A DNA stretch of 63,823 bases, filler included, from Psammoneis japonica (GCA_008632985.1; 3 parts of 3 records of this genome joined end to end with filler, not necessarily neighbours in it); one strand, 5' to 3'; numbered from the whole stretch's first letter, positions 25,450-60,268 are shown. A program made the numbers and translations. Notes: generated by a model not told the origin, from the letters alone.

Positions 25450-28400
25450 AGTGATTCATCACTCTGATTCTTGTCAGAATCCCGCAGCATTTTTGACATT
25501 TTTTCTCAAAGAGAAGCTGTGGCAGCTGCTGTTTTCCTGCTCAGCCACACGCCAACAAAATGAGCGAGTGCACACTCTGGCTGGAAGGCATGCAAAGCCC
25601 ATCTTGTGGGGGAGAAGCCCAAAGCACCAGGAGGGGCACTTGTTGTTGGCCTCCCAGATGAGAACCATCTTCTTTGGTGGCAAGCTGTGCTGCTCTGGGG
25701 CCACAGAGTGGCGGACGATGGCTGCCTCCCCACAGCAACCACAGGCCTTGTTTCGCAGCACGCTCGGCTTTCTCTCTGTCTCTGTGGCCTCTTTTGCATC
25801 TGACTTTGTTGTGAAAGGCAACAGATTTTTGTTTTTGCAATGCTGTGCATGAATGTTGATTGCTGAAGGTGATGGTCATGTTGACACCTTCAAAATCTCA
25901 ATGGAGAACATCAAGCAAGTGACAGCGGTCATCCACTGGGTTTCTCTGCCAAAATGAAAGCAATCAAAAATGATTGCTGATGAAAACATTTTGGTCAGCA
26001 ATCAAAATTGATGACTCATCACAAGCAAGCAATCAAAAATGATTGGTCACAACTGAGTCATGAGCACAAGTGTGGGTGAAGATTTGCTCAACATTTTGAC
26101 AGCCAATCAAAGTTGATCACCAGCCAGCAATTTTCAGCAAAAAATGCAGCAGAAGTGATGAAAACTGACACACACAAAAAGACATTGGGCATGGTTGATT
26201 TGCCAAACAACCCAATTTCCATCACTTGCACATGAAAACACACAATGACCAAAATTTGCAGACAGTGCAGGAGGGCATTGAGCCCCTGGTCACAGCTCTT
26301 CTGCCCCCCTTCTCAGCTGCCAGCTGTCCTCTCCAGCTGTTTTCAGATGTGCTCCAGCTTTGGGCAGGACCTTGCACTGCTGCTGCACTGTGACATCAAG
26401 AGTTTTTTTCTGTTTTTCAAAGACAAGCACTTTCCACATTTTGCGCTCATGACAACACAAATGGGCTGGGCATGACCTCAATGTCTGAAAAGTGCACCCA
26501 GTCAAAAATTGCATGATGTGCCTCAAGCAGCATCATGGAGGAGGAGGAGAAGCATTTGCACGATTGCCTCTTTTCCTGCTGGCAATTGCTCACATGTGTT
26601 CATGGCTCAACAGCTTTGCTGCGGAGCTTGCGCACAAAAAAATTTTGCAGGCCCAATGTCGCGTGCAGCCCCACCCACCTGCTGGGGCAATGGCGCGCTC
26701 CTCTGGACAAGGCAAGGCACAGACAGATGACAGAGTTTCAATTCAGTGCGATTGCTGGGCTTCCAGAAGAGCACTGTTCTTTCATTGGCCACCCAGTGGC
26801 TGGCGACTGCAGACTTTTTCATGTTGGTCAGCCAGCCAGTCGTCAGTCAGCCAGGATGTGTGGATGTTGGGATGTCAGGGTGCTGGCTGGGATGCTGGGA
26901 TGTTGGCATTTGAAAGTGCGCCCTCTGAATTTGGAGCAGCATGGGTTGCTCAGCACACGCGAGCTGCTCAGATTCTCAGAATGATCTTTGAGATGCTGGA
27001 GTTCACGTGGGCTTCCCAAAAAATCTGCAAATTTCCCATGATGGGCTCATGGAGCACTCAGCTCTTGACAAGTGTGCTTTGTTGCCAGTTGTGGACATGT
27101 TCCAGCTCCAGGTGGGACCTCGCACTGCCAAACTGTGACATCAACAGTTTTTTGGATCACGCTGCATGTTGCACATGCAGATGGCTGCGTGTGATGTTCC
27201 ATGAAATTGTTTCATGCTTCCTGTTTTGTGCAGCAAAGGCTTTCTGTTTTCAACATTTGTGACAATGAAAATGTGCTGGGCATGTTCTTCAATGTCTGCA
27301 GAATGTGCCCATGCAAGCTGTTGTTGATGTGCTCAAAGTGTGAAGGAGGAGACACGTTCATAAAACCGCCTCTTTTTCTGTTGGCAATGATTCACATTTT
27401 CATCACTTGACAAATTTGCTGCGGAGCTTGCACGTGGGATTCTGTGGGCACAATGTCACATGGTGTCCCACCTGGGATTGGAACCCATCTGTGCGCGAGG
27501 CAGCCATGCCAGAAAAAGCACGCCAAGCAACAAGTGCATCATCGGCGTGGTGTGCTGTTTTGGTGGCAACTCAATGAGTCACCAACAATGCTGGTCTGCA
27601 CTGCAGCCCTGAACACGGCATGAGCCATCTGGCACAATGGCGGCCCACACCGCCGCTCATGGCAGATGTGTTCCAGCCGCACGTGACACAAATCGTGTGC
27701 AAAAACGATGTTTGTGCAATTTTTGCGCAGTCACTTGCAAACAAAATTTCACTGCCAAAAGCACAGATTTATCCAAAACTGGATGTTTTGCAACACTGGC
27801 AAGACTTGCATCAGTGTTGCAATGTCATTGTTTTTGTGCCATCCATGTTTTTCATTGTGGCAAACGAGCCTCAACACAACGGACAATTTTTGGCAAAATT
27901 GTTGCAGTTGTTTGAATGTCAAATTGAGCGATTTTTTCACAAGACCTTCTGGTGGGTGTTTTGCCTGCAACCAAAAATCTGCGCTCAATGTGCTGATGCA
28001 CAATCAGCACTGAGTCTGCAGAGGGAGTTCACGATGCATGTCACGCGCAGAAATGAGTGCCAACGAAAACACTGTTTGTGTGTTCATGCTCCAGACACCT
28101 GCAAAAGCTCACCCACCTGAGTGTTTCATGTTGAAATGCTCCACACATGAGAGATGCACAACTCATGTTCAAAACAGATTGTCGTTTTGTGTGCCATCTA
28201 GGGCTGGAACATGTCAGTGGCTGTCGTGCACAAAACACACAAAGTTGAAGAAGAGGCAAGTGGCCAACGCTCCCCTTGGGCTGCTTTTTGCAGTTGCATC
28301 ACACCAGCTGTTGCCAAAAGGAGCCGTGCTTGTTCTAACAGCAGCGGGGGTCATTGCAGCTCTCAGAGTCATTGCGCAGAAATTGCACAGAAGAGCGCCA

Positions 28401-30104: not shown

Positions 30105-30204
30105 NNNNNNNNNNNNNNNNNNNNNNNNNNNNNNNNNNNNNNNNNNNNTTAATTAATTAANNNNNNNNNNNNNNNNNNNNNNNNNNNNNNNNNNNNNNNN
30201 NNNN
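30105..30204. other. Assembly gap with an artificial TTAATTAATTAA linker
   Basis: N runs flank a six-frame stop linker at 30149-30160. Confidence 0.95.
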
Positions 30205-30779
30205 TCTCTGCCCAGTCACCAAATCTTGAAATTTCGCAAGTGGGGCAACAGGCTGTGCATTCTCTCTCTTGAAATTTTTAGCATAGTTAAATGAAATGAT
30301 TAAAGATTGCATCTTTTGCACATCTTGTGTCCTTGAAAGAGATAACAAAATTTTTATGTTCTTTAGAAATGCTGGGGTGTGGATTTCCCGTGTTTAAGAC
30401 ACAACTCCAAACACTGTTGCCAAAATGGGGATGACATTTTGCACCATTGCACAGATTTATGATGCAATTTTTCACACTGTTACCAAAATGGGCAAGACAT
30501 TTTGCACAATTCAATTTTCATTCCTGTGGACATTTGCACTGACATGGCATGCAGTCCCATGTGATGCTCCTCACACTAAAGCTCTGTGGTCACAATGTAA
30601 CACAGAAACTTAACAACTGTGTCGTCGTGTGGCATCGCAAGGTTGTACCGTCACCTTGCCGCGACATCCATGATCACCTTCCATGTTGTTGTTGTGCTCC
30701 ACCTTCCACGTTGCGTCTCGTCTCCCTCCAATTCCGACAGGTCTCGATTGCAAAAACAACAAAATCTCTCGGCAACATG

Positions 30780-33700
30780 TGCATTTCCAACTTGGTCAGC
30801 ATGTGAGCAAGAGGACTTTGACACACAAGAAGGTCTCTTTTTGCAGGATTGTCTCCAACACACATGAATCATTTGTTCCACACTCTCAACACAGATGGAT
30901 TTCTCAACACACTTCCTGCTGGCCAAGCTTTGGCAATCTGGCCAAGAGCGCTTTATGACTGTTCAGCGGTTTGCAACGACAAACATCTGTCCTCCGCGTT
31001 GAGGGAGGTGGAAGAGGAATTGTCAGTGCAGACAGCCAGATGCAGAGATGCTGATGCCAGGAGAAAATCTCTTGCCCGGAAAAGAAAGTGCCAACACCAC
31101 ACCAGTGTCTGGGAAAGCAGCGCATCCACTGATGGGATTGGCTGTGCTTCTGTTGGTCCCCGTGTGGAGGTGCTTTCAAACGAATCACAGAAGGAAATGT
31201 CAGCAGAGTTTTGCTTGTGCTTAAACAGATTTGGACCGTCAAAGTCGATCCATCCATCGTTGTTTGGCACTTCAAGTGTGGAAGACCTGCAACCATCCGA
31301 GGACAGCGACATTGCCAATTCCATAAAAAAAAAACAGAAGACACACAAATGATTGTGAAGCACCTGTTTCCGGCACCATCAACGCCATCCAACAATTGCC
31401 AGAAGGAGCAGGTGCAGATGTTTGTTGTGACGAGCCACTCTTTGCCGACCAAGCAAAGTTGGACCACCACAGTTTTGGAATGTGCAATGACTTAACAGAA
31501 CCCACCGAAATCCCCACTGCCAAGAATGTCGCTGTCGACAATAACATGTTGGTTCTTGGCATTGTTTTTGGTGATGAGATCACTGACGTCTCCGCCCAGG
31601 AACACAGAGATACAGCACATTGTCAGGCACTAGTCAAAATCGGTTTCGATGTCCGCACTGTGGACTGCCGTGAGACAAACACTCCACATCCAAATCACAT
31701 GAACGCCAATGTACAGGCACTTAGTCGATCTGAGAACTGGGCTGCAAAGGAATGCATCTACAACTCTACATCTTTGGACGTTGCGTCTGTGACAAAATCG
31801 TATTTCAACGACAGGGTCTTGTTGGATTCTTTTTTCAGTCAATCGTTAACTTGCTTCCGTCAAAAGCTGTTGGACGTTGGCAATGTGTTTTTGCCCATCG
31901 ATTCGCAGACAGCCCAGTGTCTTTACAAAAACTGGTCTGTGGTTGGCAAAGTTTGGATTGTCAGGTGCCTATGCTGGGATCAGTGGGATGAAATGCCTCT
32001 CTTCCATCCCACTGTAATTGCATCACCAGTCTGTCATGGAAGGGAGGGAGACATGCATTTTTCACAGTGAAGATTTTGGAGCAACATTGTCAGAGGTGCG
32101 CAGTTCTTGGTGCTTTTTCGTACAGCTGGTTCCTCTTTGCTTGTGCTCACTGCTTGTCATTCATCTGTTTCAAGATCAAGGGCTTTGTTTCCGACAAACA
32201 TCACGAACTTGTTAGAACTTTCCCTGCCAACGTCGAGAGAATCAACTTCATTGCTCTTGCTCCACGAAGAAGCAACCGCATCACTACCGCTTGTGAGGTT
32301 GCTAACTCATTGATGGCAGGTGATGGTGTTGACAGCAAGGTTTGTGCAAGATGTTCCTTTGAACATCTAGAAAGCTGTGCAATCTGTCCCATGTGCTGTC
32401 AAATGCCACTGCAAAAGGCTTGGACTACCAAGTCTCTTGTCAACAGTGACCAAAAGCTAGACGAAGCGTTGGAGGTCATCGATGCCAACTACGGTCACCT
32501 GGGTGGAAGGAGGAAGTGAAATACTACGGAAAAAAGCAAGGCGGACATTCTCAAGAAAAAAATTCAATCGTTGGGTAAAACACTGCCAACCGCTGGACAC
32601 CCCGAATGGGCAAGACAACAAGCACTGGGGAACCACCTCCTTCTTCCCAAAAGACAAGAAGAAGTCACAAGCACAGTTGTTCCCAGATTTTGATCTCACC
32701 AATTTGGAAAAAATCAAAAAATCTTGGGAGAGGCAGCTGTTGTTCATTGAGAAAAAACTGGGCTGCCAGATTCAAATGCAGTTCTGTCCACACGTGAACT
32801 GGCACACAGCAAAGGGAGCAGAGTCGGCAAAAAAACTTGCCTTGGAGCTGGGTGGTGACGTTCGTGTGTATTGCCCAATGTGCGCAATCATCCATGTTCC
32901 TCATTACGTCCAAGGGATCCAATCATTGTTAACAAATACAATGTTGCGGGAATCAACACTCCTGTTGATGGCAAACATCTTTCTCAAATGCTTCAATTGC
33001 CGCAGCCACAGGAGATAGCCAGACAAGACCTTTTGTCTCAAACCACCAGCATCATTGAGGATGGATTACACAGTGGTCTCAGAGATGAGTTTGTCACCCT
33101 TTCAAAAGCAGACAAATGCAGAAAGTTTTGCTCCATGGACATCAGGATTAATGCAACAGGTGGGAAATGGAGCAGAAGCTGTGGCGTGGGAGTGGCAATG
33201 CCGGGATGCCCCCCCTGGAGCACCCAACCGAGCCTCTCCAAGGTTGCGGTGGTGGATGCTACAATTGCCTGTGATGGTTGTGCATGGTGTGTGCCATGGG
33301 ATGCTGGATGGAATACAAAGAGCGCAACAGGGTGTGACAAGTGCCATGAGACAAAAGGTCACCACGAAATGTCAAAGATGGCCAAACTGCCCCAAGACAA
33401 TCTGTGGGATGTTCTGAGAGAGTTCCATGCACACACCTCCTCAATGGAGCAGCAACTTGGCATTCAGATGCAAGCAATGGGAAGAAAAATAATCACCATC
33501 ACATTGCTTTAGCCTCATATTTTGTCAAGGACTGGTCCGTGCATCTTTCCCAAGAGAATGTTGACAAGCTCATGGAGAATTGTGTGCCTGAAACAAACAG
33601 CTACTTCACACACTTGTCGCACACTTGGTCAATCATTGACAGTCAGTTGGACAAGCTGGAGTTGAACGTAAATTGTCCACATGCGGAGTCCCTAACAACA

Positions 33701-34994: not shown

Positions 34995-37240
34995 AAAAGA
35001 TGTCCGGCCACTCATCCTTCATGTTGGCGACAAACAACATCTTTTCATCAGAGAGCTCTTGATCCGACATCCAACATGGTGCCAGACAGAGACAAATTGG
35101 TTGCCTTGGTGCCATCCTCTAAATTTTTTTCACGACTTTTTTTTTTGTTTTGGGCCTTTCTTCCATTTCTTTGCTCTGTAAGTCAGAGCTGTCTTTGGCA
35201 AAACAATGCCCATGCCAACAAGCATGTTTTTCTGACAATGCTGAAAGGTGCATTTTGGTGACGTGCCCTCCATTCGCCAATGCTGAAACAAACTGTTCTT
35301 ACTCATTTGCCTTTCATCATTGCTTTGCTTTTTACATGTTCTCCCAAAAACAACAACCTCTTTTTCATCGTCATTCAGAACGAACCCGTGCAATTGCATT
35401 GGGAACAAGCTGTCCATTCCGTCATCATTTCTGTGTGTAACACGAGCAAAGTCATGCTATCACCCAGCCTTGCGATAGTTTGGGTGGGCTCAAAATCTCA
35501 ATTTGTGTTCTGCCTATAGATTTAACTCAGAACACACCACAACGTGCTGCCATCTTATTCCCAACTGGTTTCGATGGCACAAAAATCTACGACATCCTCC
35601 TCCAAATGAGTGCTTTGTTCCCATTTCATCTCCAAGGTTCTGGTGCACTCGCAGCATGTTTTTTCAAGTCGGTTGACTGTGAACACTGCATGGCCTCAGT
35701 CGTGGTGTAACTTTGTGCTGGGTGACAAATCATCAGTGGCATGGGAATGGACAATCAAATCATTCACTCTCTCCAACAGACTCTGCTTATACAACTGGCT
35801 GGCAAGCTGACAGGTGAACTCTTCTTTGCCTTGCAAGGCTTGGCATGTCCGGCTGGGAAGCTTTGCCCATTTCTTTAGACCAGACTCACCTGTTGCGGCA
35901 TCCCATCCAGAGAATGCACCCAATTGATAAAGAGCAGCAATCAAGTGAAGAAGATCATGGAACTTTGACGTTTTCCATCCATGTGTGCCATTGCCATGAT
36001 TGACCATGCTGTGTAGCTTGAACATCAGAAGAACAAGGAGACATTTGACATCAACGCGATTGGTGTGTGAGTGCAGGGAAGAACCACAGCTGTAAAAGGA
36101 GTGGAACAACAACAATTTGTTGAGCAAAAGTAAGAGGTGATCCACATCATCACAGTCCACTGAACGACTGGCCGGCTTGAGGTCCAAGCTCTTTAGCCTG
36201 TCACAGAATGGAATTGGCAATTCCTTTTCAATTTCAGAACAGACCAACGGTTGGTTGTGAGAAGTTGCCTGTGTGTGCAGTGCCTGACCGCAGTCTGCAC
36301 AATGTCTCAAACTGTCTGCAACAGAGGAATCGTTTTCATTTGGGATGCAGAATTGTTCACCCAGGTTGACATTTCTTGTTTGCATCCACACAATGTTGTG
36401 GCAGAGATGGGCTTGAGTTTTTGTCAGCTGCAAAAGATAAGGACATGTGTGCAAGAGCCCATGGACATGGACTCAAAGGGGACTCGGTGCAGCACTGGAG
36501 CAACAATGCTGGGCAACATTAACTTGAGCTTTGACATGAAAGTTTGAGAAGAGGGAATTTGTTGGGTCACAGACAACCCACCACTGGAGAATTCCTCTTG
36601 TGCAGTTCTCAGCAATTCATCAGTCACACTGATTGGGACACCCTTGGAGCAACACAGATTCAACAGGAGGACCATGGAAATGGTTTCGCTGTTGTAAACT
36701 TCGGGCACCACGAGGTCCTCATCAGCAGAGAGGTGTTCAACTTGATCGAGTGCAGCAAAAGGGCCTGATTTGGCAACGGCGGCAGCAGCACCCTTGGTGT
36801 CGGAAACAAATTCTTCGTGGTCAGGGAACTGGCATTCTGAAACATCATCAGCGTGGGGCAGAACGGCATTGTCATGGGAACAATGCAACTCTGGCACAGA
36901 TAAAAATGCATGATTGGATCGCAACGACCGGGGACAGAGTCACGTGCAACCTTGTGGAGTTGGCCCGGTGTTGGAGTGGGACCCTGTGGCAACAAATTCA
37001 ATGGGAGGAGAGCCAAGGGGTAGAAGAGGCAGCAACGTCCCCTGGTTCTTCCAATTCTCCCATTTGCAACTGTTCGCCATGAGCTGCGTTGGATTGATGG
37101 GAAGAAACGGCACAAAGGCTTTGAGAAAAGGGCAGTTTGCAGGGAAGATGAGTTCTTAGGTGGTGTTGAAGACCAGTTGGGAGGAAATGTTTGCCACACA
37201 TGAGACAATCATTTCCAACAGCAAAGGGGGGTGCCATTGT
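34995..37240 (-). mobile_element. Plavaka-type (CMC/EnSpm-related) transposase pseudogene, probably internally deleted
   Basis: HGWKTSKFHDLLH...GWDAATGESGLKKWAKLPSRTCQ, downstream LRAHPNYRK, and upstream LLNLC..GVPIS..DELL. The central catalytic core was not seen. Confidence 0.7.
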
Positions 37241-38629
37241 TCATGTTGTAAAAACAAGTGAGATGCAAATGAGTGGGGCGAGCCACGTGGTAAAAACAAC
37301 ACGTGGCAGGCAACAAGATTGTGTTGTGTGAGTCAACTTACATTTGAGCATGCAAGATTGTAGCTTGGTTTAACACACAACATCAGTTGTCTGCATGCCA
37401 GTATGTGGCGCTTGCATCAAATGATTAACAACGTAACAGAAATCCGACTTTCCGCAGCAACTGAAATTTTGTCATGCTGGCGCGCATGTCAGATCATTGC
37501 CCCACCAGACAGACAGACCAAGAACTGTCTCTCCAATAGACAATTGAAAACAAAAAGCATGTTTGTGAGTCCCTGCTTGTGGAAGGACTGATCCATTTGT
37601 TGTACAGAGGATTGCCTTGATGTGCAGTTCTCCAATGGAAGCCGGGTGCTGCAACCCACGGAGTGTGAAGTGGGCCCTGAAGACACCGGATGCCTGCCAT
37701 CATTGTGGAGATCACGGGGTCTTTTTGCTTCAGAAGGATCTGGAATGAAAAAACATGATGGAGGGCAAGGAGTGCTGCCCACTGTGTGAGCCATGCTGTC
37801 AAAAAGGTAAGAAACCAGCAAAGAAGAAGAACTCTTCAAAGCGGCAACAGCAGAGTGTGCGGAGACGCAACATAAGAAGCAAAAAATCATAGCTCCAGGA
37901 AGCAGATCACTCAACTGTAAAAGGCATGGCATTTTAGCAAAAGCTTGAGACTCACTGCACATGGCACTCTCGCAACTGCATAAACAGCAGTGACAATTGT
38001 GAGACATTGAGACAATCAAGGTTGCCGAATCAAATCTGCTCCTGTTGATGTCGTTCATGGATTGATGGAAGTTGACGTTCAATCTTTTTTGTGTTGCCAC
38101 ATTACTGTTGGTCTTTGGCAATGGCATGCAACAGTGGGAAGTTAGTCATGAGCATGCATGCAGAGCAGGTTATGCATGCTGTGACTGTGCTTAATGCCAT
38201 TCAATGCCAGAACCTACGTAGATTCTACGGTCTTTAATAAAAAGGTTATTTTGACCCACCCACCCACCCCTGTTACATGCAGAAGCTTGAGGTGGAACAC
38301 AGCTTTAATTCTGACTTGTCCACATCTAAAGTCATCTAAAGATCGCGCATGTTCATAACCATCGCCAACACATTCTGTGATGTCCTAGAGAGCAGGAAAT
38401 GGACAAAGTTTGACCTGTTGCTGGANATTCTACTTTGGCGAACGTGCATGCTTTTAGTGTGATGAATCCGGTTTTTTGCAAAAAATTGGTGGATCCATCC
38501 TTAACGTCCAACACATTGCTGACTGGAAGTTTGTCCAGAAACAAAAACAAGACAAAATAAACATAAATTGTGACACTCTAGAGACAACGCATTCAGCCAG
38601 AATTTCGAGTTGATGCCATGTCAGGTTAT

Positions 38630-39260
38630 CCTCTTCTTCTTACCAATGCACTTCCTCCAAGTTTTCTTTCCAATGCACTGCAACTCATGATGGATGTGCT
38701 GTGGTGTTCTGATGTTGCAGCTTCAGTATATAATTTCTGTGCAATTCCACACATGATGGAATTTTCACCCAACAATCCCCCAATCATCATTTCCTTTCCT
38801 TCGTTGGGGCCCATGTTGGACTTTCCTGGATGCATTTTCTTTCCCGATGTCAGTGTGTTTTCTACGTTAAATTCTACATGATTCAGCAATTTCTAAGTCA
38901 GCTATTCCAGTGCAAATTTCATGTGCAATTCTACGCGTTTGGCCAGATTTTCGAGGCGACGACCTTTTCAGGTTTATCTTTTTGTTCTTCTCACCAACGT
39001 GTTCCCTTTGAGTTTTCTTCCCAACACACTGCAATTCATGATGGACATTCTACGGTGTTCCAAAGTGGGTCATCATAAGTCTTTCAAGTGGTTCGCATCT
39101 CCAAGTCTCAGTGTTGTTCCTCTTGCTCTTCGATGCAGCTATAGCAGCACACAATTTCTGTACAATTCTACGCATGACGGAAATTTCATCCGACATTTCC
39201 GATCATCATTTCTCTTTCTTTGTTGGGGTCCGTGTTGGACTTTCTTGGGTGTTTTCATCC
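38630..39260. repeat. Diverged direct repeat (two copies, ~38630-38840 and ~38990-39260)
   Basis: Shared blocks agttttct..ccaa..cactgcaa.tcatgatgga, aatttctgt.caatt and gttgggg.cc.tgttggactttc. Confidence 0.7.
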
Positions 39261-40104
39261 CAGGAATGTCTCTCACATTCTCTTCACACACACATTATCT
39301 TCAGAGACAGACACATGTTTAGTTTTCTGCAGTGTTTGTTTTTGGTGTCTCCCACATGGTGTGGCTGGGCTTGCCCATTCTTTGATGCACAGCAACTGTG
39401 TTTGCCGTGTTACAAGCATCTGGTCAGTTGCTATTTCGACTTAAAACTGTGGCATCTGACAGGCATTGTTCTTTAACAATGAATCAAATAGCTGTCAAAT
39501 TGCCCCCTGCTGCTCTTTGTGGGCACTGGGGAACGTGAGTCTACCGTGGTTGGTGTTGGTGTGGGCGGCAGCAAGGCAGTGGCAAAATAGATTTGTTTCC
39601 TTCTGGGCCTTCTGTCATGACAACCACACGCACTAATGGCACAGTGCAGATCAAACGTGGTGACATCATTGACACTGTCAACATCTGTCCAATGACTCCA
39701 TTTAACAAATGACTTTAATGTGCAATTGGGGAGGTGAATGCAGCATGCTTTGTTAAGCAGACGAAATTACACATGTCCATAATTTTGTGTTGTCTCATGT
39801 GTGTCAATCCTGCGACAATCGTGGATGCATGCGATGGTCAGGTCAATCACACTGAATTGAATGGAAGTCTAAAATTGCAAATACGATCCATGGACAATGG
39901 TGACACACAAGATGTCAACATTGATTGTATCCAGACAATCTGTTGTCGCGATTAGATTCTCTGAAAGGCCTTTGCTCTGTGGGAGCAGTGTGCAATGTCC
40001 AGCTACTTATAAGAGTTAATGCATCACGGCGACGTGTTACAGCCTTTAAAAGTCACAAAGGTCATGTCTAAAATAACCTTTTGTCTGCATGCATGCTGCA
40101 TTAT

Positions 40105-48463: not shown

Positions 48464-48928
48464 CCCTTCAACCACCGGACTTGAGCAAATCTCTACGGGT
48501 GGAGATTTGCTCCCTTACATCACAAATATAGTAAATAAAGTAATTTCAGATATGGATAATATTTCATTCGCGCGATTTTGTTTTGGAATGCGCATTCGCC
48601 GAAAATCTGGGGGAACCCTTTTTGTAATTTAGAAAGTTCAATGTTGACTTTTAACACCGGGTTTTTTGCAAGCTTCATCTATGGATAGAGAGGAACTAAA
48701 TATCAACCTTTAACAATAGAGGTTATCATGAATTACTATCGCAAATAGAGGAATAATACCACACCCTTGGAGCAAATCTCCACCGGTGGAGATTTGCTCC
48801 CAATAAGTAAATGCACGTGGTATACTTTACGTAGATTCTATGTGATATGACATTTTTATACTATGTACATTATATTAGCATAAAAGTGCATGACACGTCA
48901 CAAATCCTTAAGTAGAGCAAATCTCCAC
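48464..48928. mobile_element. Non-autonomous piggyBac-like element in a TTAA site, right end truncated
   Basis: TTAA at 48460-48463 is followed by CCCTT. Palindromic GAGCAAATCTC..GAGATTTGCTC motifs lie at 48483-48512 and 48769-48800, with a half copy at 48915-48928. Gag resumes at 48929. Confidence 0.65.
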
Positions 48929-49206
48929 AACAATGCCACTGACTCGCAACCTTCTGAAACCAACGCTACGTATGCTACGTGCATGGCAAAGCTAAAGGAA
49001 AGTATCTTCCTTCATGGGGTGGTGCATGACTATGTCGCAAGGGCTGTTGAAATTAACAGCTGTGTCTCTCAGTTTCCACCTGTGATGCAGGGAGGAGAAA
49101 CACTGGAGCCATTGCCCAATGATGAACTCTGTGACTTGTTCGAGTACGGTGTGCCGAACGCATGGCAGATGCGTTCCAGGCCTAGGTGGGCACAGTGGTT
49201 CAGTTC

Positions 49207-52200
49207 TGTTACGACGATTCTTGAGAATCTGCGATTCTTGAGAATCCGGACCTGGAATTTTGTGAAAACCATTTTTTAAGAATCGGACCTCGTGCAAATT
49301 TCCCATTTGTTGTGAACCACCGATTCTCCAGAATCACGGTCACCGATTCACAAGAATTCCCTTTTTGGCCATTTTCTGGATTCTCAAGAATCCCAGACAT
49401 GCTCAAGACGTGGCACCCTTGGATTAGATGGGCTTGACAAAAAGGAGTTCCGCAAGCAATTTGGCAACCAAGCTTACTCCTGGGTTCGCACCCACCTTGT
49501 GGAGATGAATGACTTTGGTTGCAACACTCTCTTCCGAATCAAGAAGAACTCCGATGGAGAGATTGTTTCAAAGCTCATGGTTGTTCACCTTGAGCAGACA
49601 TTTGATGTCGTGGCGCAGCACCATCACCAGACGGACGGTCATCTAAAGCTCGCGCGCACATTCAATGACATAAAGAAAAAATACTACAATGTGACTGAAC
49701 AGCTGGTTTCCCACTACATTGATCTGTGCCCCACTTGCAGCAAGGCCCAGCCGTCTGTGGCAAGAGTTGAGGGGGCTCGTGTCCCAATCGTGAGCCGGAG
49801 TTTTCGTGACAGGTTCCAGATGGACCTTGTCGACTACCGAAAGGACCCTCGCCAGTTCTACCCAGGGGACCCAAACTCCCCAACCATGAAGTGGCTCATG
49901 GTTTTGAAAGATCACTGCACCAGGTTGCTCTGGACCACTGCCATTCCCTCCAAGGAAGCAAAATGGGTTGCCAAGGAGTTCTGCCACATTTGTTCTTTGA
50001 TCGGCTACCCCCTTGTAAGCCACACAGACAACGGGAAGGAGTTCACAGCAGAGCAAGTGACTGAAGCCATCCAGGAGCTCAACCCATGCTGCAGCACTGT
50101 CCAGGGTGGTGCCAGAATGCCTTGGCACCAGGGTTCCGTGGAGCGCTCAAACCACCCCATTAAATCGGCCATCGCTTTGCTTGTCAAGGAAGAGATCCGC
50201 AAGGGAAACACCAATGCATCATGGGTGACGGAGCACCCCAAGGCAATGGCATCTCTCAATGCAACTGCCAACAAAGGAAAAAGCGAGTGCTCTGCCTACT
50301 TCCATGTCTTTGGCATGGAGTTCCATGAACTCCTGACAACCGTTCCCCTTGCAAACATGCAAAGTGCCAAGACTGTTGCTGAGAGATGCGCCATCATTGG
50401 TGGAGACTACAAGAGGAAGATGCTGGCAATGGGTGAGGTCACGGAAGAAGAGATTGCTGCTGTTGTTTCCAGCAAAATTGGTCCATTGAATCTCTCCACC
50501 ACTGACTCTGTTGCTTCAGCTGGCGATCCTCCTCCTTTGGGCACAGGCAATCTCACTGCTGACTTCCACGCAGAAACATCCTCTCCCTCTCCCAAAAAAT
50601 TGAATGCCTCTGCATCTGCAGTTGCTTTGTTCTCACCAATCAAGTCTGGCAAAAGCAATGGAGAGCAACCCGCATTGCCACGCTTGCCAGCAGACACGGA
50701 ACAACCAAACCACCCCCCTCCTCCGATTGCAGCCAAGGCATCACCAAACAAGGTGGAGGCACCCCCGGCCAATTCAGCCGGTGTGCTGTCCAAGCCGTGT
50801 GCATCCAAGGAATCACCAAACAATGAGGAGCCACCCAAAGCCAATTCAATCACTGTGCCAACCAAATTGGTCACAGCCAAGGAATCACCCACTGACGTGG
50901 AGGTTGAAAAAGAACCACAAACCACCATGGGGCTGCCAACAGAATTGCCAACAGACACGGAGCTGTCCAAAGCCGGGGTTGCCAAGGCACAAGCAAAGCT
51001 GGAGCAATTTTTCCCGGCTGAAACACTGAAGATGCAAGTTGCCAACCAAAAATTTTGGTCGAAGTTTCCCTTCAACCGTCGGGTGGCTTTGTCAAGCACA
51101 AGACACCGTGTGACCCTGGATGATGGCACCACACCAAAGTGTGTTTATCCACAACTTGATTGCCCCAGGTGCTGCCTGTCGGGCAAACCTTTCAAGGTTG
51201 CATGCTATGACAACGATTACATCCACAACAGCAGGAGCAGAAGCCGATGGTTCGACACACAATTTGTCTCAAGTTTTGCACAGTTGCTTGCACACGAGGG
51301 TCACCCGCAAAACACGAGGATGCTTCACGTCATGTATGGGGCAACGTCCTTGGCTCAACTTCAAGGGTCGTTGAACAGCCAACCAATCTCGCTTTCAGGG
51401 TCAGTCACAACTCTCTGCTCCGTAGCCAACCGGTCGTCACATTTTGCTGTGCTTAAATTTTTGTTGCCGCAAAAAACCGTTCAAGTTTTTGAGGGCCTTG
51501 GGTACAAACTCACCACCTGGAATGACGAAATCATGTACGCTCTCAAGAGGTGCGGCCTTGTGTCCAAGGATTCTCAAGCAAGATGCGTCTTGGAACATGA
51601 AGAGAATGGAACTCCACCAGCAGCCAAGAATTATCGTTCAGGTGCATGGAAAGTGCAAAGAGGAGAGGTGTCAGCAGCTCAAACGGACACCCACAGCTGC
51701 GGCCCTCGTGCTTGCGTTTTACTTTGGGACATTCTGTCACCCAGAACAATGCCCTTGCCCTTGCAATTGTTGTCTCCTGACAATTATCGCCTTGCTGTGA
51801 TGAACAAGTATCACGATCTTTTGGAAAAGGAACAATCAAAAGATTTGCACTTTCTCCAAAAAGTCAAGGGTGTCACCATTGACTGGGAAGAAGAAGAGCA
51901 TCATCCAAAAGTTCCCGACTCCAATGTTGTCACGATTGACCAAGAAGATCCCACAGTGCCTCAAAGGATTCGTTGTGGATTGTGCCTTGACAAGGAGCTT
52001 CCGGTGGACACAGCGCTTCATTGCTGCCAACTGACTTTGCATTTGCACTGTGCACTGGGCTGCCTTGACTCTGACAGCTTGTGCCCCTGCTGCCACTCAG
52101 AAATTGACAAGGCTTGTTTTGAAAAACTAAATGACGATGATGTCAAGTTGCTTCTGGTGGGGTCTGCAGCAGAATCATCCTCACAGGTTCAAGATTGTGG

Positions 52201-54346
52201 GAAGCATGGAAAACTGTCAGTTGTCCACAAGACAGAAAGTGTCTCGGACAGCTCAGAAAGGAAGGAAGACACAGACGACGAGTTGTCGCAGTCACCCTAC
52301 TATCATGAGAAAGAAAATCCCAAGGGCTCATTTCTGAAAATAGGAACACAAATAAGGTTCAAAAGTGGCAGCTCTTTTTGGAAAGAACGCAAAGCCACAA
52401 TTGCCGGATTCCACAGAAACACGGTGGTGACCTCTGAAGGCGACTGGCTGCAATTCAAGAGTGAAAAGGAGGAAGATGAAACCATTGAAGAGTGGGAAAA
52501 AAATTGATGTGTATGATCCAGTAATTGCCTTGGAGCCACCGCCAGGTGACCAACCCATTTACATGTCATTGCGGCTGTGGCATGTGTGCATTGACAAGGA
52601 CTTGCAAGAGTGGTTGCGGGAGGCAAAGTCGAAGCGACCAACAATTTATGACCAGCTCATTGCCAAAATAATAAAGGAGTATGGCGAAGGCAGTGCCTGG
52701 GCCGTTGCCGGACCAACTGGTGTTGCAGCAAAACGTCAAACAATTGCCAAGATGAAGGACTTGGGAACCATGCCTGAACCCAAAACAGGACCTCCATGCA
52801 AGATATGGAAGCTGGATGGTGGCACACCAACCAGTGATTTGCTCCCAAACGACGATCATCAAAACCGCAGAAACAAGAGAGCACGCAGTGACAAACTCGC
52901 TAAAGATCGTCAAGAACGCGGTCACAAGAAAATGAAGGTGCGGTTTGAAAAAAGTCGCTCTCTTGTTCCCGGCTGTTTGGTCAGAATGAAGGTGGACAAA
53001 AGAGATCGCAACAAAGGCAACTACATCGGAATCATTGGCGTGGTGTATGAACAACATCCAGAGAGCATGTCGGTCAAGGTGGTGACAGAAGGTGGCATCA
53101 TATCCACTTACAACAAACCAAGAAACATTCAAGCAAGAGATTACAGCCCTTTGCAGAACCAGCATGTGCCGGTGGCCGAAGCACTTGACAAGTGGCGACA
53201 ACAAGTCAGGGACGGCACGTTCGATGAATCATCTTGTCCAAAGATAAGTTTGAAGAAGGCCCACAAGAATAGCACAGGAGACCAACCCAACAACATCGAT
53301 CAAAAATAGTTTTGTCTGTCATCACGTGTTGCTTTTCATTGCGAGGTAAACCCCCTCAACAACTTTTCAACTTTTTTCATCATTTTAACTTTAGCATGAC
53401 GTTGTCATAAGACTGAATGGAAAGTTTCTACATGAATAATTAAAAAATTTGGTCATTAAATCAATCGTCGAATGATTATACCCACCGCACTGCTAGAGAC
53501 AATTAGTGCAGTCATGGTTTGCACAGACAAAAGACTCTATAAATCGGTCATTCAATGACCGATTTGCCTAGAACCCTAAATAAACCATGTTTTTTATTTA
53601 AGTTCTTGGCAAATCGGTCACAGTCATTGGAGCAAAAATGAGGAAATAAACGTTAATTAGCCGTTATTCTGGTCATTTACATGAGACAAACAACAACGAC
53701 CTGAGGAAAAAATGGTGCTGCTGCATCCGTCGCGCCGCCACCATGAAAATGGGTCCATGCGTCACGACACCAAACAACAGGTGTTGTCCCTCCACCGGTG
53801 GATTCCCCCCTTCCTCCTTCGATGGCACATGTGCTGGTGAAGGCTGTTCTTCTGGTGGCATGTCAATCGCTCGAAGTGTGAATGGTCGGTTGGTGCCACG
53901 TCGACATGCGGTAATATAAAACAACAGGTCAATGGGCGGTGCGTACAATGTGTACACAGTCTTACCTGCATGTAGAAAATATACTGAAATGCTCTGTAGG
54001 AAATTTTCTACTTTTTTCATCATTTTAACTTTTGCATGACGTCATCGTAAGACTTTGCATGTGTTCCAAAATTTTGAATTGAAAATTTCGAATCAAATTA
54101 ACAAACAACGGTCATTTAATAAATCATTATATATTAGTTTGGTGACTGTATGTTGAACATTTTCGGATTCTTAAGAAAAAAAATATGATATTTTTAAGAA
54201 TACAAACGGCATTCTTAATAATCCGTGCCGTTGATTCTTGTTAAAAGAGCAGGACGAGCTAGAATTTATCACTCAACGGAAATCCGATTCTCGAGAATCG
54301 GAATTCGGATTCTTAAGAATGGGAATTCACGACTTTCGTCGTGACA
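49207..54346 (+). mobile_element. Ginger-type integrase DNA transposon (TGT...ACA ends, 4-bp TSD GTTC)
   Basis: TIRs TGTTACGACGA / TGTCACGACGA; GTTC at 49203-49206 and 54347-54350; palindromic GATTCTYRAGAATC subterminal repeats at both ends. Confidence 0.9.
49499..53309 (+). CDS. Integrase-type transposase (H2C2 + rve DDE) fused to Ulp1/C48 protease, RING finger and an SH3-like C-terminus; one frameshift at ~52500; probably 5'-truncated
   Basis: HHQTDGH...CPTC, FQMDLVD, HTDNGKEF, QGSVERSN, SHFAVL..QTDTHSCG and CGLC..HCC..HLHC..CPCC. ORF 52461-53309 (GCLVRMKVDKRDR..IIGVV) joins if one A is removed from a homopolymer. Confidence 0.85.
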
Positions 54347-57029
54347 GTTCTACGCGCGAGTGGCATTAGCTTCGACTTGTACGACTAAAATCTAAATAAA
54401 TAATCTGGAGCTCGACCGACCTCGAATATTTTTTAAATTCCTTGCTTTCATGCATGAAACGCTATTTTACGGAATCCCATTTAATGACACAGAGCTGCAA
54501 GTTTCAAGATGTTATTCCAACATCAAAACTGCTGTGGCATTTGGAGCACCTTCCATAGCCCTTCACTTTACTCGTTTGAGTGACCGTTCCTTAGACGTGC
54601 TCCAAATGGCAAGCTTATTTTGACTACAAAGTAGCAGCTTTAAATTGGTGTTCCGTTTTCTGTGTAGAGCGTACGCATTTTTCTCGTATATGACGTCACA
54701 TTGAGAACACTCGATCACAAAATATATTTTGTGAACTCAACTGGATTGACGATGATCGATGATCGTCTTATGCCTTTCCACTGGCTGTTTTTAAATGCTT
54801 CTGATGTAGATCAATCGCCCATGAGTTGCACTGTAGTCTTATGACTAAAGAATATTTTTATAAAGTTGCTTTTTATGCAGCTCTCAGCTCGCAAACGGAG
54901 AGCGTTCCGACATCTTTGCTGCTGACCTGCAGCACCATTGACCGTCATGCACTCTTCCTACTTTACTAAGAACAAGCCATTATGTTGTCAATGGGTCAAT
55001 CTAATTTTCTTTTTACATTATGACATATTCTACATTTGCTCTAAATGTGAGCTGTCTATAAGGTAGAAGACATCTAAATCCACGAGACAAACAAGTAGAG
55101 TCGGATGTTTTATGTCAACTTTCGGTGGAGACCACGTTGGTAGCGAGTGCAGCTTGCTTGTTCGAGTCGCCAACAGGGAAGATGGACAATCGGCGACACA
55201 TTACATTCCTTTGGTGTCAATTGCAAATGGATTCGAGTGTCGATACAACATGGCGGTCGACGGTCACGTGTTTGCTGATCTCCGATGCAAAGACAGGTTT
55301 CTCCAAAAGCTTCATGGCCTCAGGGAACCGTGCCCCGGACGATTGATGATACCCTGGTAAATCAAGTGAAAGAGTAGCAAAATGCTGTTCAGTTGGGCGT
55401 TTGTAATAAAAATGCGAGGTTAATACCAACAAACAACTCGCATCTGCTTTGGATTTTTACCTTGTGTTGATGTTATCGATTTTCTGGATTGTGGCTAGAG
55501 AATACGTAATTTCAAAGGAGCACATGAATTAAGAAGAGGGTGACGAGTAACATTCCATAGGTTTGACGACAATTGAAGTGCTTTCAGTGGCGCAATAGCT
55601 GCGAACCTCGACCGCCGCCATTGCCGAAGATTGGAGAAAATGGTTGATGTCGGCATGATTTTTGTGTACCAGACACACACGTACATTTCTACGCTGGTAC
55701 AAAAAATTATTTCTACGAAGCTAATGCCGCTTTGAACCACTGTGATGGGAGCTCGTACCAGTAGTACTGATGTGTGACACAATTATTTTTTATCATCCGT
55801 CGTATGTTTCGCACGTACATTTCTACGTTTGACATTGCAAAAAATTGTTCCAGACTTGCTGTTTTGTGAAACCACAGACGTTTTATTTAATGATGTTATA
55901 GGAACATTAATAGGCCAGGTGCATTCTTCAATGTCTGAAGAATGTACCAGGCTAAGTAGATAATGATGTACTTCGATTGACGAGCTTTGCATTCGCAAAA
56001 TTGCCTCATTTTCTGTTGGCGATCATTGATATATATTAATTACCTAATAATTTTAGTATGGAGCTCGCACGTAGATTTCTACGGGCCCAATGTCACACGG
56101 ATCCCCACCTACGTCTGGAACGCGTTGGCAGAAGATCATGACTCTACAGAATTTTGACCCGTTGGCTCATACTATGGCCACAATTCTGCGAGTGGATCGA
56201 GCAGGTCGAGTCTACCGAAGGTAACCAGGACCAACATACTAAGGTTCCACGTAAGCAGTGCCGTAGAACGGACAATCCTGAGTCGTTGATCATTAATCAG
56301 AAGAACACCCAGAAGTCGTGTATGCTCCACTAACTGTGGACATCATACTGACAATTGCCGTGCACTCAAGCACCACGTGAAACGTGTCAAGACTAACCAT
56401 GCCAATGGTGAAGACAGCAAAAGCCTAATCAAAAAGCCAAACCTGAAGAAGACATTTGTGCTATCATTGGCACGAAGGTAGACAAATACTTTGCCAACGC
56501 TCAGAAAAAGCGCAAGGCACGCGAGGAAGAGCTTAATCACTTCCGCGACCTCAACTTAAGCAATTCCCACAATTCGGACACCTGAGAAAGGGGCCGACAC
56601 AATGCTGGTGGTTTTAATGCATTAGATGAATGTACAAATGAACAACTAACATGCCATTGTACACGTGTTGTAGACCAATCCCGTAAACGAGTTAAAAAGG
56701 CTCACCTCACATCAATCTTGTTTGCAGCTATGAATGCCAAGCATGGCAAAGGCAAGACTCAGACTATTAAGGTGCCACCAGACAGTGGCGCCAGCAGTGC
56801 TCTACTAGATAAGTGACACTGCAAGCGTTTGCAAAGCCGTTCAACAGCTGAGACAAACTGGACAACGGTGGCAGGCTCGTTCAGTACAGTCAGCGATTGT
56901 ACCATTAAATTTAAGTTGCCAGAACTATCCGAGACTGCGGAACTTATACATGCCGTCCACGAACACAACGGAAAGTTGGGCAAGTACGATGTGATTATTG
57001 GATGAGACATTCTGGAGACACAATGAATG

Positions 57030-60000
57030 AGATAGGCACATGTACTCTACGACCGAGTGTGCCCTCTCTGACGTGTGCAACTCGCAGAATACTGTTGAAA
57101 AGAGAAAGAGCTTATTTACGTGCACGTGCAAAAATTTTATTAGAAATCAATCGGAACCTCAGCGTAATTATACTTGTGAAATTGGCGATTCGGAGCAGCA
57201 TTTGTTTGAACTCGAAGCTCGTGTTACTATGCTTGAACTTGTCATTGTTTGGTTATTGATTGTTCTCGTTGTGTGGATCAATTGGGAACGTATTGTTTCA
57301 TTTGTTGTGTGGATTATTGATTCTTTGATCACTGAAATTGTTCATCATCATGTATCAAGAAGCCTTGGAGAAAGTGTGCATTGAGTATAAAACCAAATTT
57401 TTGGATTCTGAATTGCAGGAAGTGAAGCTTACTCAAACTTTTGATGATGGAACTAAACTATCAAAGATGTATTATGACACCGGAACGGAACTCTTTGATG
57501 CCTTTGAGGATTGCTTACAAGGTACTGCAGAGGCAAAATGGCAGAATATCACGGCAGGCATCCCACAGAATCAAAGGATGGTAGCTCGGTTCAATCAAGC
57601 CATTACGGATTACCATCTATGCTATGTGAAGCCGACAGCTCGTGATACGATGAAGATGTGCTTGCCTACTTGCAAGAAACCTTACTCCGCGGAATCTGCA
57701 ATGCATGTTGATCGTATGGAAACTTTATTTCGCTATACTAACCGTTTGCCCGGAACCGTCCCTGAACTCAAAGAGCAGGAACAGAAAAATATTATCTTCT
57801 ACACCTTTCCTTTGACATGGCAGCAGTCCTATGTTTGTGCGGGCAAGAATCTTGTTACGGATTCAATGGTGGATATTCAAGCCTACATGAGTAACAAGAA
57901 GGTGTTTGCCGATGGTCAAGATAACAAGAAACGCAAGTCCAATAATGGCAATGGAGGGAATTCCAGTAACAAAAAGGGGGGCAACCGTGACAAGAAGGAT
58001 GGCAAGGGTCAACCCAAGGCTGGTGATCCATGTCCGGTCCCGTGGCATCATGGAAGACATACATGGGGCCAGTGTTGTGATATATCCAAAGAATCCTAAC
58101 TGTCGTGGACCTCAAAACCGCGGCAGTCGAGGTGGAGGTCGTGGCGGTGGAGGTCGAGGCGGAGGTCGCATCCAAGGAGGCCGTGGTCCTGGCCGTGGTG
58201 GAGGTGGATGCTTTGGTGGTCGTGGCAACCAAAACCAAGGAGGTCGCGGTACCCATTATAATAACAACAACAACAACAACAATGGGAATCAAAATAACAA
58301 TGGCAACCAAGGTGGTGGTGGCCAACATTATTACAACGATAACAATCGTGGTGGCCAAGGTCAGGCCGACAGCCATGCTGCTCAAGCAGATAATGTGAAT
58401 GACAACCAGGCTCGAGAAGCTCCTCGTGGTGAGATGCACCATTTCGATATGATCGGGCGAGGCCCTCCACATTCCGGAGGTGTGGTGAGGTTTCAGCCAG
58501 ATGGGCAGTTTCCTCAGCAGTTCTGAGAAGAAGGAGCTGAGTGCTCCAGAGCTGAATGCTCCCAATTGCCTACATGTGAAGTATTTGTTGAAGATGATTG
58601 TACCATGCCTGAAAATTTGCCTGAAAGTTTTGCCTTTGATTGTTTTGAAAATCCTAATGAATTATTGCCTGTTGAATTTGAAGATACTACAGAAAGTTAC
58701 ATGAATGAAGAGGGGGACGTATTCGATCAAGATGCATTTGAATATAACATTCCTCTCCCCAAAATGGGTTTGCAAGTTTCGCGTACCGCATTGGTCCCAT
58801 CAACTCTGTTAGTTGCCAAATCGATCCAGCCTCATGAGTCGAATCGTGTGATGTGTGTACTATTTGATTCTGGTGGCTCTCACACTATGATCTCTTCTCA
58901 AGTTTTACCTCGTGGAGCTGTACCATCCATTGATGAGCAAGGAGTATGAGCTTTTCAAACCATTGCAGGTCCTTTTCAGTCAGGTTGTTGGGTGGCTCTG
59001 AGTGACATTGTACTACCCGAATTCAACAAGACCAGAAGAGTTGACGGTTGTGTGGCTCATGTGTTTAATGCTCCATGTGCGTACGACATTATTTTGGGTC
59101 GAGATTTCCTAGACAAAATTGGACTCCATTTGAATTATGACACAAGAACTCTATGTTGGTTGGACCGTATCATTCTGATGAAGGATCCTCGTCATTGGTC
59201 CAAGTCCTGCAACTGGCATGTTGCACTAGACCGAATGGACGAATTCGATGAAGATTACGAGGACGAATCGAACTACGGATATGACGATGGACATGATAGC
59301 CACTGTTGGATGCTAAGTATGAAGCAACGGATCCTGCAGAAGTGGTTCGCAACCTAGATCACCTGATGGAAGAGCAAAAGAAAAAGCTGTTAGCGGTGTT
59401 GGAAAAATGCTCAACCTTGTTTGACGGAACTTTGGGTCACTGTCCTCATGAAAAGGTACACCTGGAGGTGGAAGAAAATGCCACACCCTGTCACTCAAAA
59501 CCTTTTCCTGTCGCTCGTGTTAATGAGGAAGCGTTTAAAAAGGAACTGAAGCATTTAGTGGACCCAGGAGTTCTACGACCATGTGGACCTACGGAATGGG
59601 CAGCTGGCACTTTCATTACTCCGAAGAAGGACGGCCGAGTGCGATGGGCATCTGATTTCCGTGAACTGAATAAGGCACTCAAGCAAAAAGTGTATCCTTT
59701 GCCGGTCATCCAAGATGCACTACAGCGGAGAGCAGGGTGCAAGTTCTTCACCAAACTTGATCTTACCATGTTCTACTGCAACTTGGAATTGGACGACGAA
59801 AGCAAGGAGCTAGCGATGATTGCAACCCCGTACGGAAAGCTCCAATGCTGTCGCATGGCCATGGGATTGAAACCAGCTCCAGATGTTGCTCAGTCTATCA
59901 TTGAAAAGATTTTACATGGTTTGGATGTCGAAACTTATATTGACGACATTGGCGCCTTTGATGCTGACTTTGATTGCCATCTCTCTCGTCTTGACAAGGT

Positions 60001-60168
60001 GTTACATCGTCTAGAGAATGGATTGAAAGTGAACCCATTAAAATGCGAGTGGTGTGTCCAAGAGACGGATTTCCTAGGATATTGGCTCACTCCAACTGGT
60101 GTCAAACCGTGGAAGAAAAAGGTCGAAGCGATTCTACGAATGCAACCTCCACGACATGCCACGCAACT
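57030..60168 (+). mobile_element. Second Ty3/Gypsy element (gag with RGG/Asn-rich tail, protease, RT), cut by the gap
   Basis: Gag 57338-58526, protease VLFDSGGSHT, YDIILGRDFL, and RT motifs EWAAGTFITPKKDGRVRWASDFRELNK, TYIDD and TDFLGY. Confidence 0.9.
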
Positions 60169-60268
60169 NNNNNNNNNNNNNNNNNNNNNNNNNNNNNNNN
60201 NNNNNNNNNNNNTTAATTAATTAANNNNNNNNNNNNNNNNNNNNNNNNNNNNNNNNNNNNNNNNNNNN
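60169..60268. other. Assembly gap with an artificial TTAATTAATTAA linker
   Basis: N runs plus linker at 60213-60224. Confidence 0.95.

Follow-up and report, generated by a model that had tools for sequence, protein, structure and literature searches.

A 63,823-nt stretch of DNA from Psammoneis japonica (GCA_008632985.1), which we shall call the window, contains a small non-coding transposable element with bipartite ends of unequal length, interrupted close to its left terminus by a second transposon of the Ginger type. On balance we favour the view that it is a non-autonomous Transib/RAG-like element whose ends are genuinely unequal, and that it has been disabled by the Ginger-like insertion. 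The same two conserved blocks are found at each end, set 11 nt further apart on the left than on the right, and insertion of the element added five bases at its target site. The element belongs to a multi-copy family, in which a second long left end is seen. The superfamily of the element, the enzyme that moved it and any function of the asymmetry are what we infer from these features; the CAC...GTG termini taken together with the 5-bp duplication would seem to fit Transib/RAG-like elements best.

All positions are those of the whole window, of which 48929-57029 is the stretch shown. The window is made of three joined assembly pieces, with artificial linkers at 30105-30204 and 60169-60268 that each comprise 44 N, TTAATTAATTAA and a further 44 N. 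The element lies wholly inside the middle piece.

Anatomy of the element and its target site

The element is 1,410 bp in length, made up of 49191-49206 and 54351-55744, and the two halves are separated by the 5,140 bp of the Ginger-like transposon. Its parts, and the target-site duplication (TSD) on either side, are:

49186-49190, + strand: left copy of the TSD, GTGGG, by direct reading; the same GTGGG is present once in an empty paralogous site, at 27112-27116
49191-49206, + strand: first part of the left end, CACAGTGGTTCAGTTC, consisting of the terminal 12-nt block CACAGTGGTTCA and GTTC; the block is an exact inverted match to 55733-55744
54351-54374, + strand: second part of the left end, TACGCGCGAGTGGCATTAGCTTCG, made up of TACGCGCGAGT, the extra spacer, and GGCATTAGCTTCG, the inner 13-nt block (54362-54374)
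54375-55715, strand not assigned: non-coding interior without a transposase remnant, as judged by frame, Pfam, PDB and protein searches
55716-55744, - strand: right end, reading inward CACAGTGGTTCA, then AAGC, then GGCATTAGCTTCG, with a spacer 11 nt shorter than that of the left end
55745-55749, + strand: right copy of the TSD, ATGGG, with one mismatch, by direct reading and comparison with the empty site

CACAGTG is found at 49191-97 and its complement at 55738-44, and thus the termini read CACAGTG...CACTGTG, as an earlier note on this DNA, made from its letters, had pointed out. The right end reads CACAGTGGTTCAAAGCGGCATTAGCTTCG when 55716-55744 is reverse-complemented. Between the 12-nt and the 13-nt block there are 15 nt at the left end and 4 nt at the right. 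The GTTC that closes the first part of the left end doubles as the target of the Ginger-like insertion. Searched against the window, the inner block GGCATTAGCTTCG gives two matches, both exact, one at each end of the element. The terminal block CACAGTGGTTCA gives 13 matches with two or fewer mismatches, where 9.96 are expected, and the exact matches (2 of the 13) are the two ends.

The earlier note described the ends in terms of spacers of exactly 12 and 23 nt, as in the recombination signal sequences (RSSs) of V(D)J recombination. Its coordinates, letters and counts for both ends agree with the sequence, and 23 and 12 are arithmetically right. These values depend on where the borders of the blocks are placed, however, and they count conserved bases as spacer. 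Both ends have GTTCA after the heptamer and AG[T/C]GGC ahead of ATTAGCTTCG. Given that GTTCA and GGC (or AG[T/C]GGC) are common to the two arms, the natural spacers are 15 and 4 nt (or 12 and 1 nt) and not 23 and 12, lying between conserved blocks of 12 nt and 13-16 nt. The difference of 11 nt between left and right is the only robust part of the spacer asymmetry. The note had itself cautioned that the second block is not an RSS nonamer and that GGC is shared, and both points are sound: the block is not A-rich, and GGC is present in both arms.

Self-BLAST and short-word BLAST of the ends revealed no other copy of the element in the window. A blind scan of the window for CAC...GTG pairs bordered by short TSDs returned 49 candidates, of which the two best others, at 37197-39801 and 30412-32448, have no extended similarity between their ends and are ascribed to chance. 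Reading the element as a solo long terminal repeat was also rejected; TG...CA borders would make the flanks inverted and not direct.

The DNA around the element is a repeat unit of ~390 bp with 20-nt inverted ends, comprising 49170-49190 and 55750-56125. A second copy of this repeat in the window provides the empty site:

49170-49190, + strand: left arm of the ~390-bp repeat with terminal inverted repeats (TIRs) that hosts the element; inverted pair of 20 nt, 90% complementary
55750-56125, + strand: the other part of the ~390-bp TIR repeat hosting the element; 66% identical to 27134-27484 over 359 nt, with very high summed depth
27099-27484, + strand: second, TA-depleted copy of the host repeat, the empty site, in another assembly piece of the window; TA observed/expected 0.04

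On the left, 49173-90 corresponds to 27099-27116 at 15 of 18 positions, and on the right 55745-58 corresponds to 27112-27125 at 11 of 14. One and the same GTGGG of the paralogous empty site is thus covered from either side, showing that the insertion added the element and exactly five bases. A 5-bp duplication with one later substitution is the simplest reading of the flanks. This is the TSD that the earlier note had read as GTGGG/ATGGG with one mismatch, and the site at 27099-27484 bears it out.

The element and its host repeat also have short sequences in common. A 16-nt string is identical in the right subterminal region of the element and in the host repeat outside it (short-word BLAST, E 0.002), at positions 55678-55693, 55812-55827 and 56068-56083. 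The motif TTTCTACG has five matches in the window where 0.97 are expected, and 55686-56083 holds four of the five, all on the + strand. The left end has, in its extra part (49204-06 with 54351-54), the sequence GTTCTACG, which resembles TTTCTACG.

Further copies and coding capacity

How general are the unequal ends? Contigs from three public runs of the source sample (X1, X2 and X3) were aligned to 48500-56700 at 80% likeness; no contig of X3 aligned to this interval. One contig of X1, with a depth of 36, runs along the right end as far as 55740, passes through 19 other letters ending in CACGGTGTTT, and then goes on from window position 54345. The left end in this contig is uninterrupted and as long as that of our reconstruction, with a single GTTC and two substitutions, and its terminal heptamer reads CACGGTG. 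This provides independent support for the left end reconstructed by removal of the insert, which the earlier note had obtained by excising the Ginger-like transposon with one copy of GTTC. It also demonstrates that the element at 49191-55744 is not alone in having a long left end. Across copies, the evidence on end asymmetry thus amounts to one further left end, in the long form. In the same contig the right end lies within 19 letters of the left end of another copy, with ~5 letters between the termini, a junction that could stem from tandem insertion or from the joining of two ends.

Summed depth over contigs, which is not a copy number, is ~800-880 over the outer parts of the element and 141-333 over the middle, with ~60 for single contigs. 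Contigs of X2 carry diverged or internally deleted variants of the interior. The depth pattern and these variants together indicate that the family is multi-copy, and that ends are commoner than the interior of the element at 49191-55744. One X2 contig lacks 107 nt (~55353-55460) that are bounded by GT..AG on the minus strand, in the manner of a spliced transcript; the type of run X2 is guessed as DNA, and no long frame was found across the 107-nt skip.

Other contigs concern the Ginger-like insert. One with a depth of ~170 joins its right end (54347) back to its left end (49207) with one other letter between, suggesting tandem copies or a circular form of the Ginger-like element. In another, from X1 and of depth 68, position 49207 is followed by ACAG and then by 54351, perhaps as a footprint of Ginger excision or as part of a variant copy.

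The interior of the element (54375-55715) has no frame longer than 97 aa. Compared with Pfam, the interior frames gave only DUF6136 at E 0.03, which is not credible, and the best match in PDB had E 1.8. The best interior frame was compared with 1.84 billion representatives, giving two weak matches (E 2.5e-4 and 7.3e-4); both owe their score to a repeat of 27 residues in an unrelated protein and were rejected as evidence of coding or of a transposase remnant. As the interior frames have no credible homologues, the element is non-autonomous. On this point we concur with the earlier note, which had seen no transposase inside.

The end blocks were also sought more widely. A metagenome scan with the inner block AGYGGCATTAGCTTCG found 120 loci, none of which (0 of 120) has CACNGTG within 40 nt upstream, and all are taken to be chance matches. 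A viral scan with both blocks and a variable gap gave one match, inside a 70-aa open reading frame (ORF) of a small viral contig and with no partner, which is again attributed to chance. There were no matches to both blocks with a variable gap in a scan of prokaryote genomes.

Relationship to Transib, RAG-like and other transposons

TSDs of 5 bp set Transib apart from other DNA transposon superfamilies, and the targets are GC-rich; the Transib consensus TIR is a CAC heptamer with a second block (PMC1131882). The element has the 5-bp TSD (at a single insertion, with four of the five bases identical), termini with a CAC heptamer, and a bipartite end. The A/T-rich, nonamer-like second block is absent. 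The earlier note had implied that unequal ends would be new, which is overstated, as asymmetry of the TIRs was described in Transib in 2005, in five families with 5′ and 3′ TIRs that look like RSS12 and RSS23 (PMC1131882), and spacers of 4 and 13 bp in the RAG-like transposon AanRAGL in 2022 (PMC9435367). Moreover, all Subgroup I Transibs have asymmetric TIRs (PMC9435367).

The anatomy of the element appears to fit this published asymmetric pattern closely, and most of all the 4/13 layout of AanRAGL, an active transposon of the pelagophyte Aureococcus anophagefferens (Tao et al. 2022, PMC9435367). In AanRAGL the terminal element is 13 bp and the second element 10 bp long, and the TSDs are 5 bp. 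Thus both transposons are bipartite, with a CAC-initiated terminal element of 12-13 nt and a second element of 10-13 nt, and both have a 5-bp TSD. The short spacer is 4 nt in each, while the longer spacer is 13 in AanRAGL and 15 in our element, giving offsets of 9 and 11 nt, respectively. The host of our element is likewise a stramenopile alga, if it is a diatom, a point on which comparison with a protein atlas gave generic eukaryotic UCH clusters only. In contrast, the blocks are dissimilar in sequence beyond the CAC, and AanRAGL is autonomous with genes for RAG1L and RAG2L, whereas our element encodes nothing. The second element of AanRAGL is also not A-rich (PMC9435367), so that an A-rich second block is not universal in RAG-like elements.

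The five Transib families with asymmetric ends (Transib5, Transib2_AG and TransibN1-N3_AG; Kapitonov and Jurka 2005, PMC1131882) share with the element a CAC-initiated heptamer, a 5-bp TSD and a GC-rich target, which is GTGGG here. Their ends also differ by about one helical turn, and non-autonomous copies exist. They have an A-rich, nonamer-like second block, variable spacers and insect hosts, whereas the second block of our element is GGCATTAGCTTCG and part of its 'spacer' is conserved. The TIRs of PflRAGL-A, from the hemichordate Ptychodera flava, are laid out as heptamer, TR2, asymmetric spacer and nonamer with an asymmetry of 10 bp (preprint 10.1101/2023.08.20.553239). PflRAGL-A resembles the element in having a heptamer, an adjoining conserved stretch, an asymmetric spacer, a second block and a 5-bp TSD. 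The asymmetry of 10 bp compares with 11 in the element, the conserved stretch by the heptamer (TR2) is 9-10 nt compared with 5 nt, and the second block of PflRAGL-A is AT-rich.

The 12RSS and 23RSS of V(D)J recombination can be compared in the same way. The heptamer of the element is the consensus CACAGTG quoted in PMC1131882, and the ends differ by 11 nt. In the 12/23 architecture spacers of 12±1 and 23±1 separate heptamer from nonamer, whereas the spacers between the shared blocks of the element are 4 and 15 (or 1 and 12), and there is no ACAAAAACC-like nonamer. Furthermore, these are transposon ends and not the signals of gene segments.

If the element is Transib/RAG-like, its mobility would depend on a RAG1-like (Transib/RAGL-type) DDE transposase acting in trans, the gene for which would lie at another place in the genome. 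Such an enzyme would nick at the CAC border and integrate with a 5-bp stagger. Its second DNA-binding part would read the inner block, and would tolerate or need the offset of one helical turn, as in the published asymmetric ends of Transib and RAGL. The copy at 49191-55744 is probably no longer mobile as a unit, because 5.1 kb now separates the terminal block from the inner block. The earlier note had proposed a non-autonomous Transib/RAG-like element; the TIR transposon, the CAC...GTG termini, the five-base duplication and the multi-copy family all stand in its favour, and the A-rich nonamer and a RAG1-like ORF in the window are missing from the picture.

A number of observations weigh against the assignment. 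No transposase is linked to the ends of the element, and a Pfam scan found none of RAG1-like type among the 67 ORFs of at least 150 aa in the window. Comparison of the entire element, its right end and its left interior with other stretches of sequence gave no match. The inner block is neither A/T-rich nor nonamer-like, and an offset of 11 nt is one of many possible indel sizes. The TSD is known from a single insertion and is identical at four of five bases, and a 4-bp TGGG with a stray base fits its length equally well. The short form of the right end is explicit in one copy only. Lastly, if the contig with ACAG in place of the insert is another copy of the element, then the length of the left spacer varies within the family.

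The most substantial alternative, which we consider possible and somewhat less probable than the reading we favour, retains a Transib-like element and takes the 11-nt difference to be a neutral subterminal indel, inherited within a sublineage and without a role in pairing the ends. Many transposons have unequal subterminal regions. Most of what the earlier note had counted as a 12-nt spacer is conserved sequence, making 12 and 23 unnatural values, and the resemblance of GTTCTACG in the extra stretch to TTTCTACG, which recurs on the same strand close to the right end and within the host repeat, is a hint that a motif was acquired and not that a spacer rule applies. Yet the second copy, with two substitutions in its terminal block, keeps exactly the same long left end, and asymmetric ends are typical of Subgroup I Transib and of RAGL (PMC9435367).

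It is rather unlikely that the element belongs, as a non-autonomous form, to another CMC lineage (Chapaev- or EnSpm-like), in which case the true duplication would be the 4-bp TGGG with a stray base at the right border and the asymmetry would be incidental. TSDs of Chapaev and EnSpm are 2-4 bp. Five bases were added at the one site of our element, which 4 bp and one stray base would also fit; indeed, TGGG is duplicated exactly and it is the fifth base that differs. Termini of the CAC...GTG type and a short TSD are common to the element and these transposons, and the lineages of the CMCT clade share CA..TG termini and TSDs of 2-5 bp (PMC12730594). However, with a 4-bp TSD the element would end CACTGTGA, spoiling an otherwise perfect terminal symmetry. 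Moreover the empty site reads GTGGG, so that a 5-bp duplication and one later substitution is at least as simple.

An origin in an unrelated superfamily able to make 5-bp duplications, be it hAT5, in which families with 5-bp TSDs exist (PMC12730594), Ginger2/TDD, of which TDD-4 and TDD-5 make 5-bp TSDs (PMC2836005), or an undescribed one, is very improbable, since the third base of hAT termini is always G (PMC1131882, figure S7 legend) where the element has C, and the termini of Ginger are TGTNR and not CAC (PMC2836005).

The nest of insertions and its wider meaning

The transposon that splits the left end of the element has the following features:

49207-54346, + strand: Ginger-like DNA transposon of 5,140 bp, with termini TGTTACGACGA and TGTCACGACGA (read inward), splitting the left end of its host element
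49316-52504, + strand: open frame of 1,063 aa with an integrase-like region (Pfam rve and Integrase_H2C2)

The insert is flanked by a 4-bp TSD, GTTC, at 49203-06 and 54347-50. In the 1,063-aa frame the match to rve has E 4.9e-6 and 27.2 bits, under the curated threshold of 32.6, and that to Integrase_H2C2 has E 2.5e-5 and 24.7 bits, under the curated 25.5. Ginger elements have TGTNR termini and a 4-bp TSD (PMC2836005), with which the TGTTA/TGTCA termini of the insert and its GTTC flanks agree. A transposase of the H2C2 plus DDE integrase type is a further mark of the group, to which the two Pfam matches correspond. The target GTTC is unlike the published preferences for CCGG or RTATAY (PMC2836005).

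The repeat that hosts the element has ends of the GCGTTCCAGGCCTAGGTGGG type, and is bordered by the 7-nt duplication TGGCAGA, found at 49163-69 and again at 56126-32; its site is the gag region of a retroelement. In three contigs of the source sample 49162 is linked to 56126, the two parts having seven letters (TGGCAGA) in common. Other copies of the surrounding gag region are thus without the 390-bp repeat, itself an insertion that made a duplication of 7 nt. The summed contig depth of the host repeat reaches 103,337 in the bin 55898-56171. Around the nest there are gag-like frames and a protease/reverse-transcriptase-like stretch (48884-49162 with 56126-56222; 57329-58096; 58800-60160), for which no Pfam family was found, and the left gag-like frame runs on across the 390-bp repeat if the repeat is removed.

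The ratio of observed to expected TA is 0.04 for the host-repeat copy at 27099-27484, 0.90 for the copy around the element, 0.67 for the element and 0.30 for the Ginger-like insert. By this measure the host repeat around the element is unmutated, and the copy at 27099-27484 is almost without TA. The value for the Ginger-like insert is below that of its surroundings and may reflect partial exposure to TA-erasing mutation.

The order of events can be proposed from these borders. The gag region of a retroelement would first have received the ~390-bp TIR repeat, with the 7-nt duplication TGGCAGA. That repeat would then have received the 1,410-bp non-autonomous cut-and-paste transposon, with a 5-nt duplication, and the left end of the transposon would later have been split by the Ginger-like element, with a 4-nt duplication. 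Taken together, the nested insertions make a neat local history of transposon activity in this genome.

Among the papers brought up by a full-text search on Transib and diatoms, judged largely from titles and the starts of abstracts, there is no apparent diatom Transib. A bolder interpretation, which we regard as doubtful, is that these are the ends of a diatom lineage of RAG1-like transposons, the enzyme of which needs one long and one short end, an offset of one helical turn, and a second block that is not A-rich. Were this true, such a lineage and the pelagophyte element together would suggest that, in stramenopile algae, asymmetric pairing of the ends goes far back in the RAG1/Transib group, and the X1 contig that joins a right end to a left end could be a tandem insertion or a joined-ends product. 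The finding raises no fresh question, given that the principle has been published before and the copy at 49191-55744 brings no enzyme. Yet if the assignment to the Transib/RAG-like group holds, this diatom family joins the few non-animal relatives of RAG and Transib, and would be the second stramenopile case of bipartite, unequal ends. As such it would bear on the debate as to whether asymmetry of the 12/23 type predates the vertebrates (PMC8355894, PMC9435367, preprint 10.1101/2023.08.20.553239).

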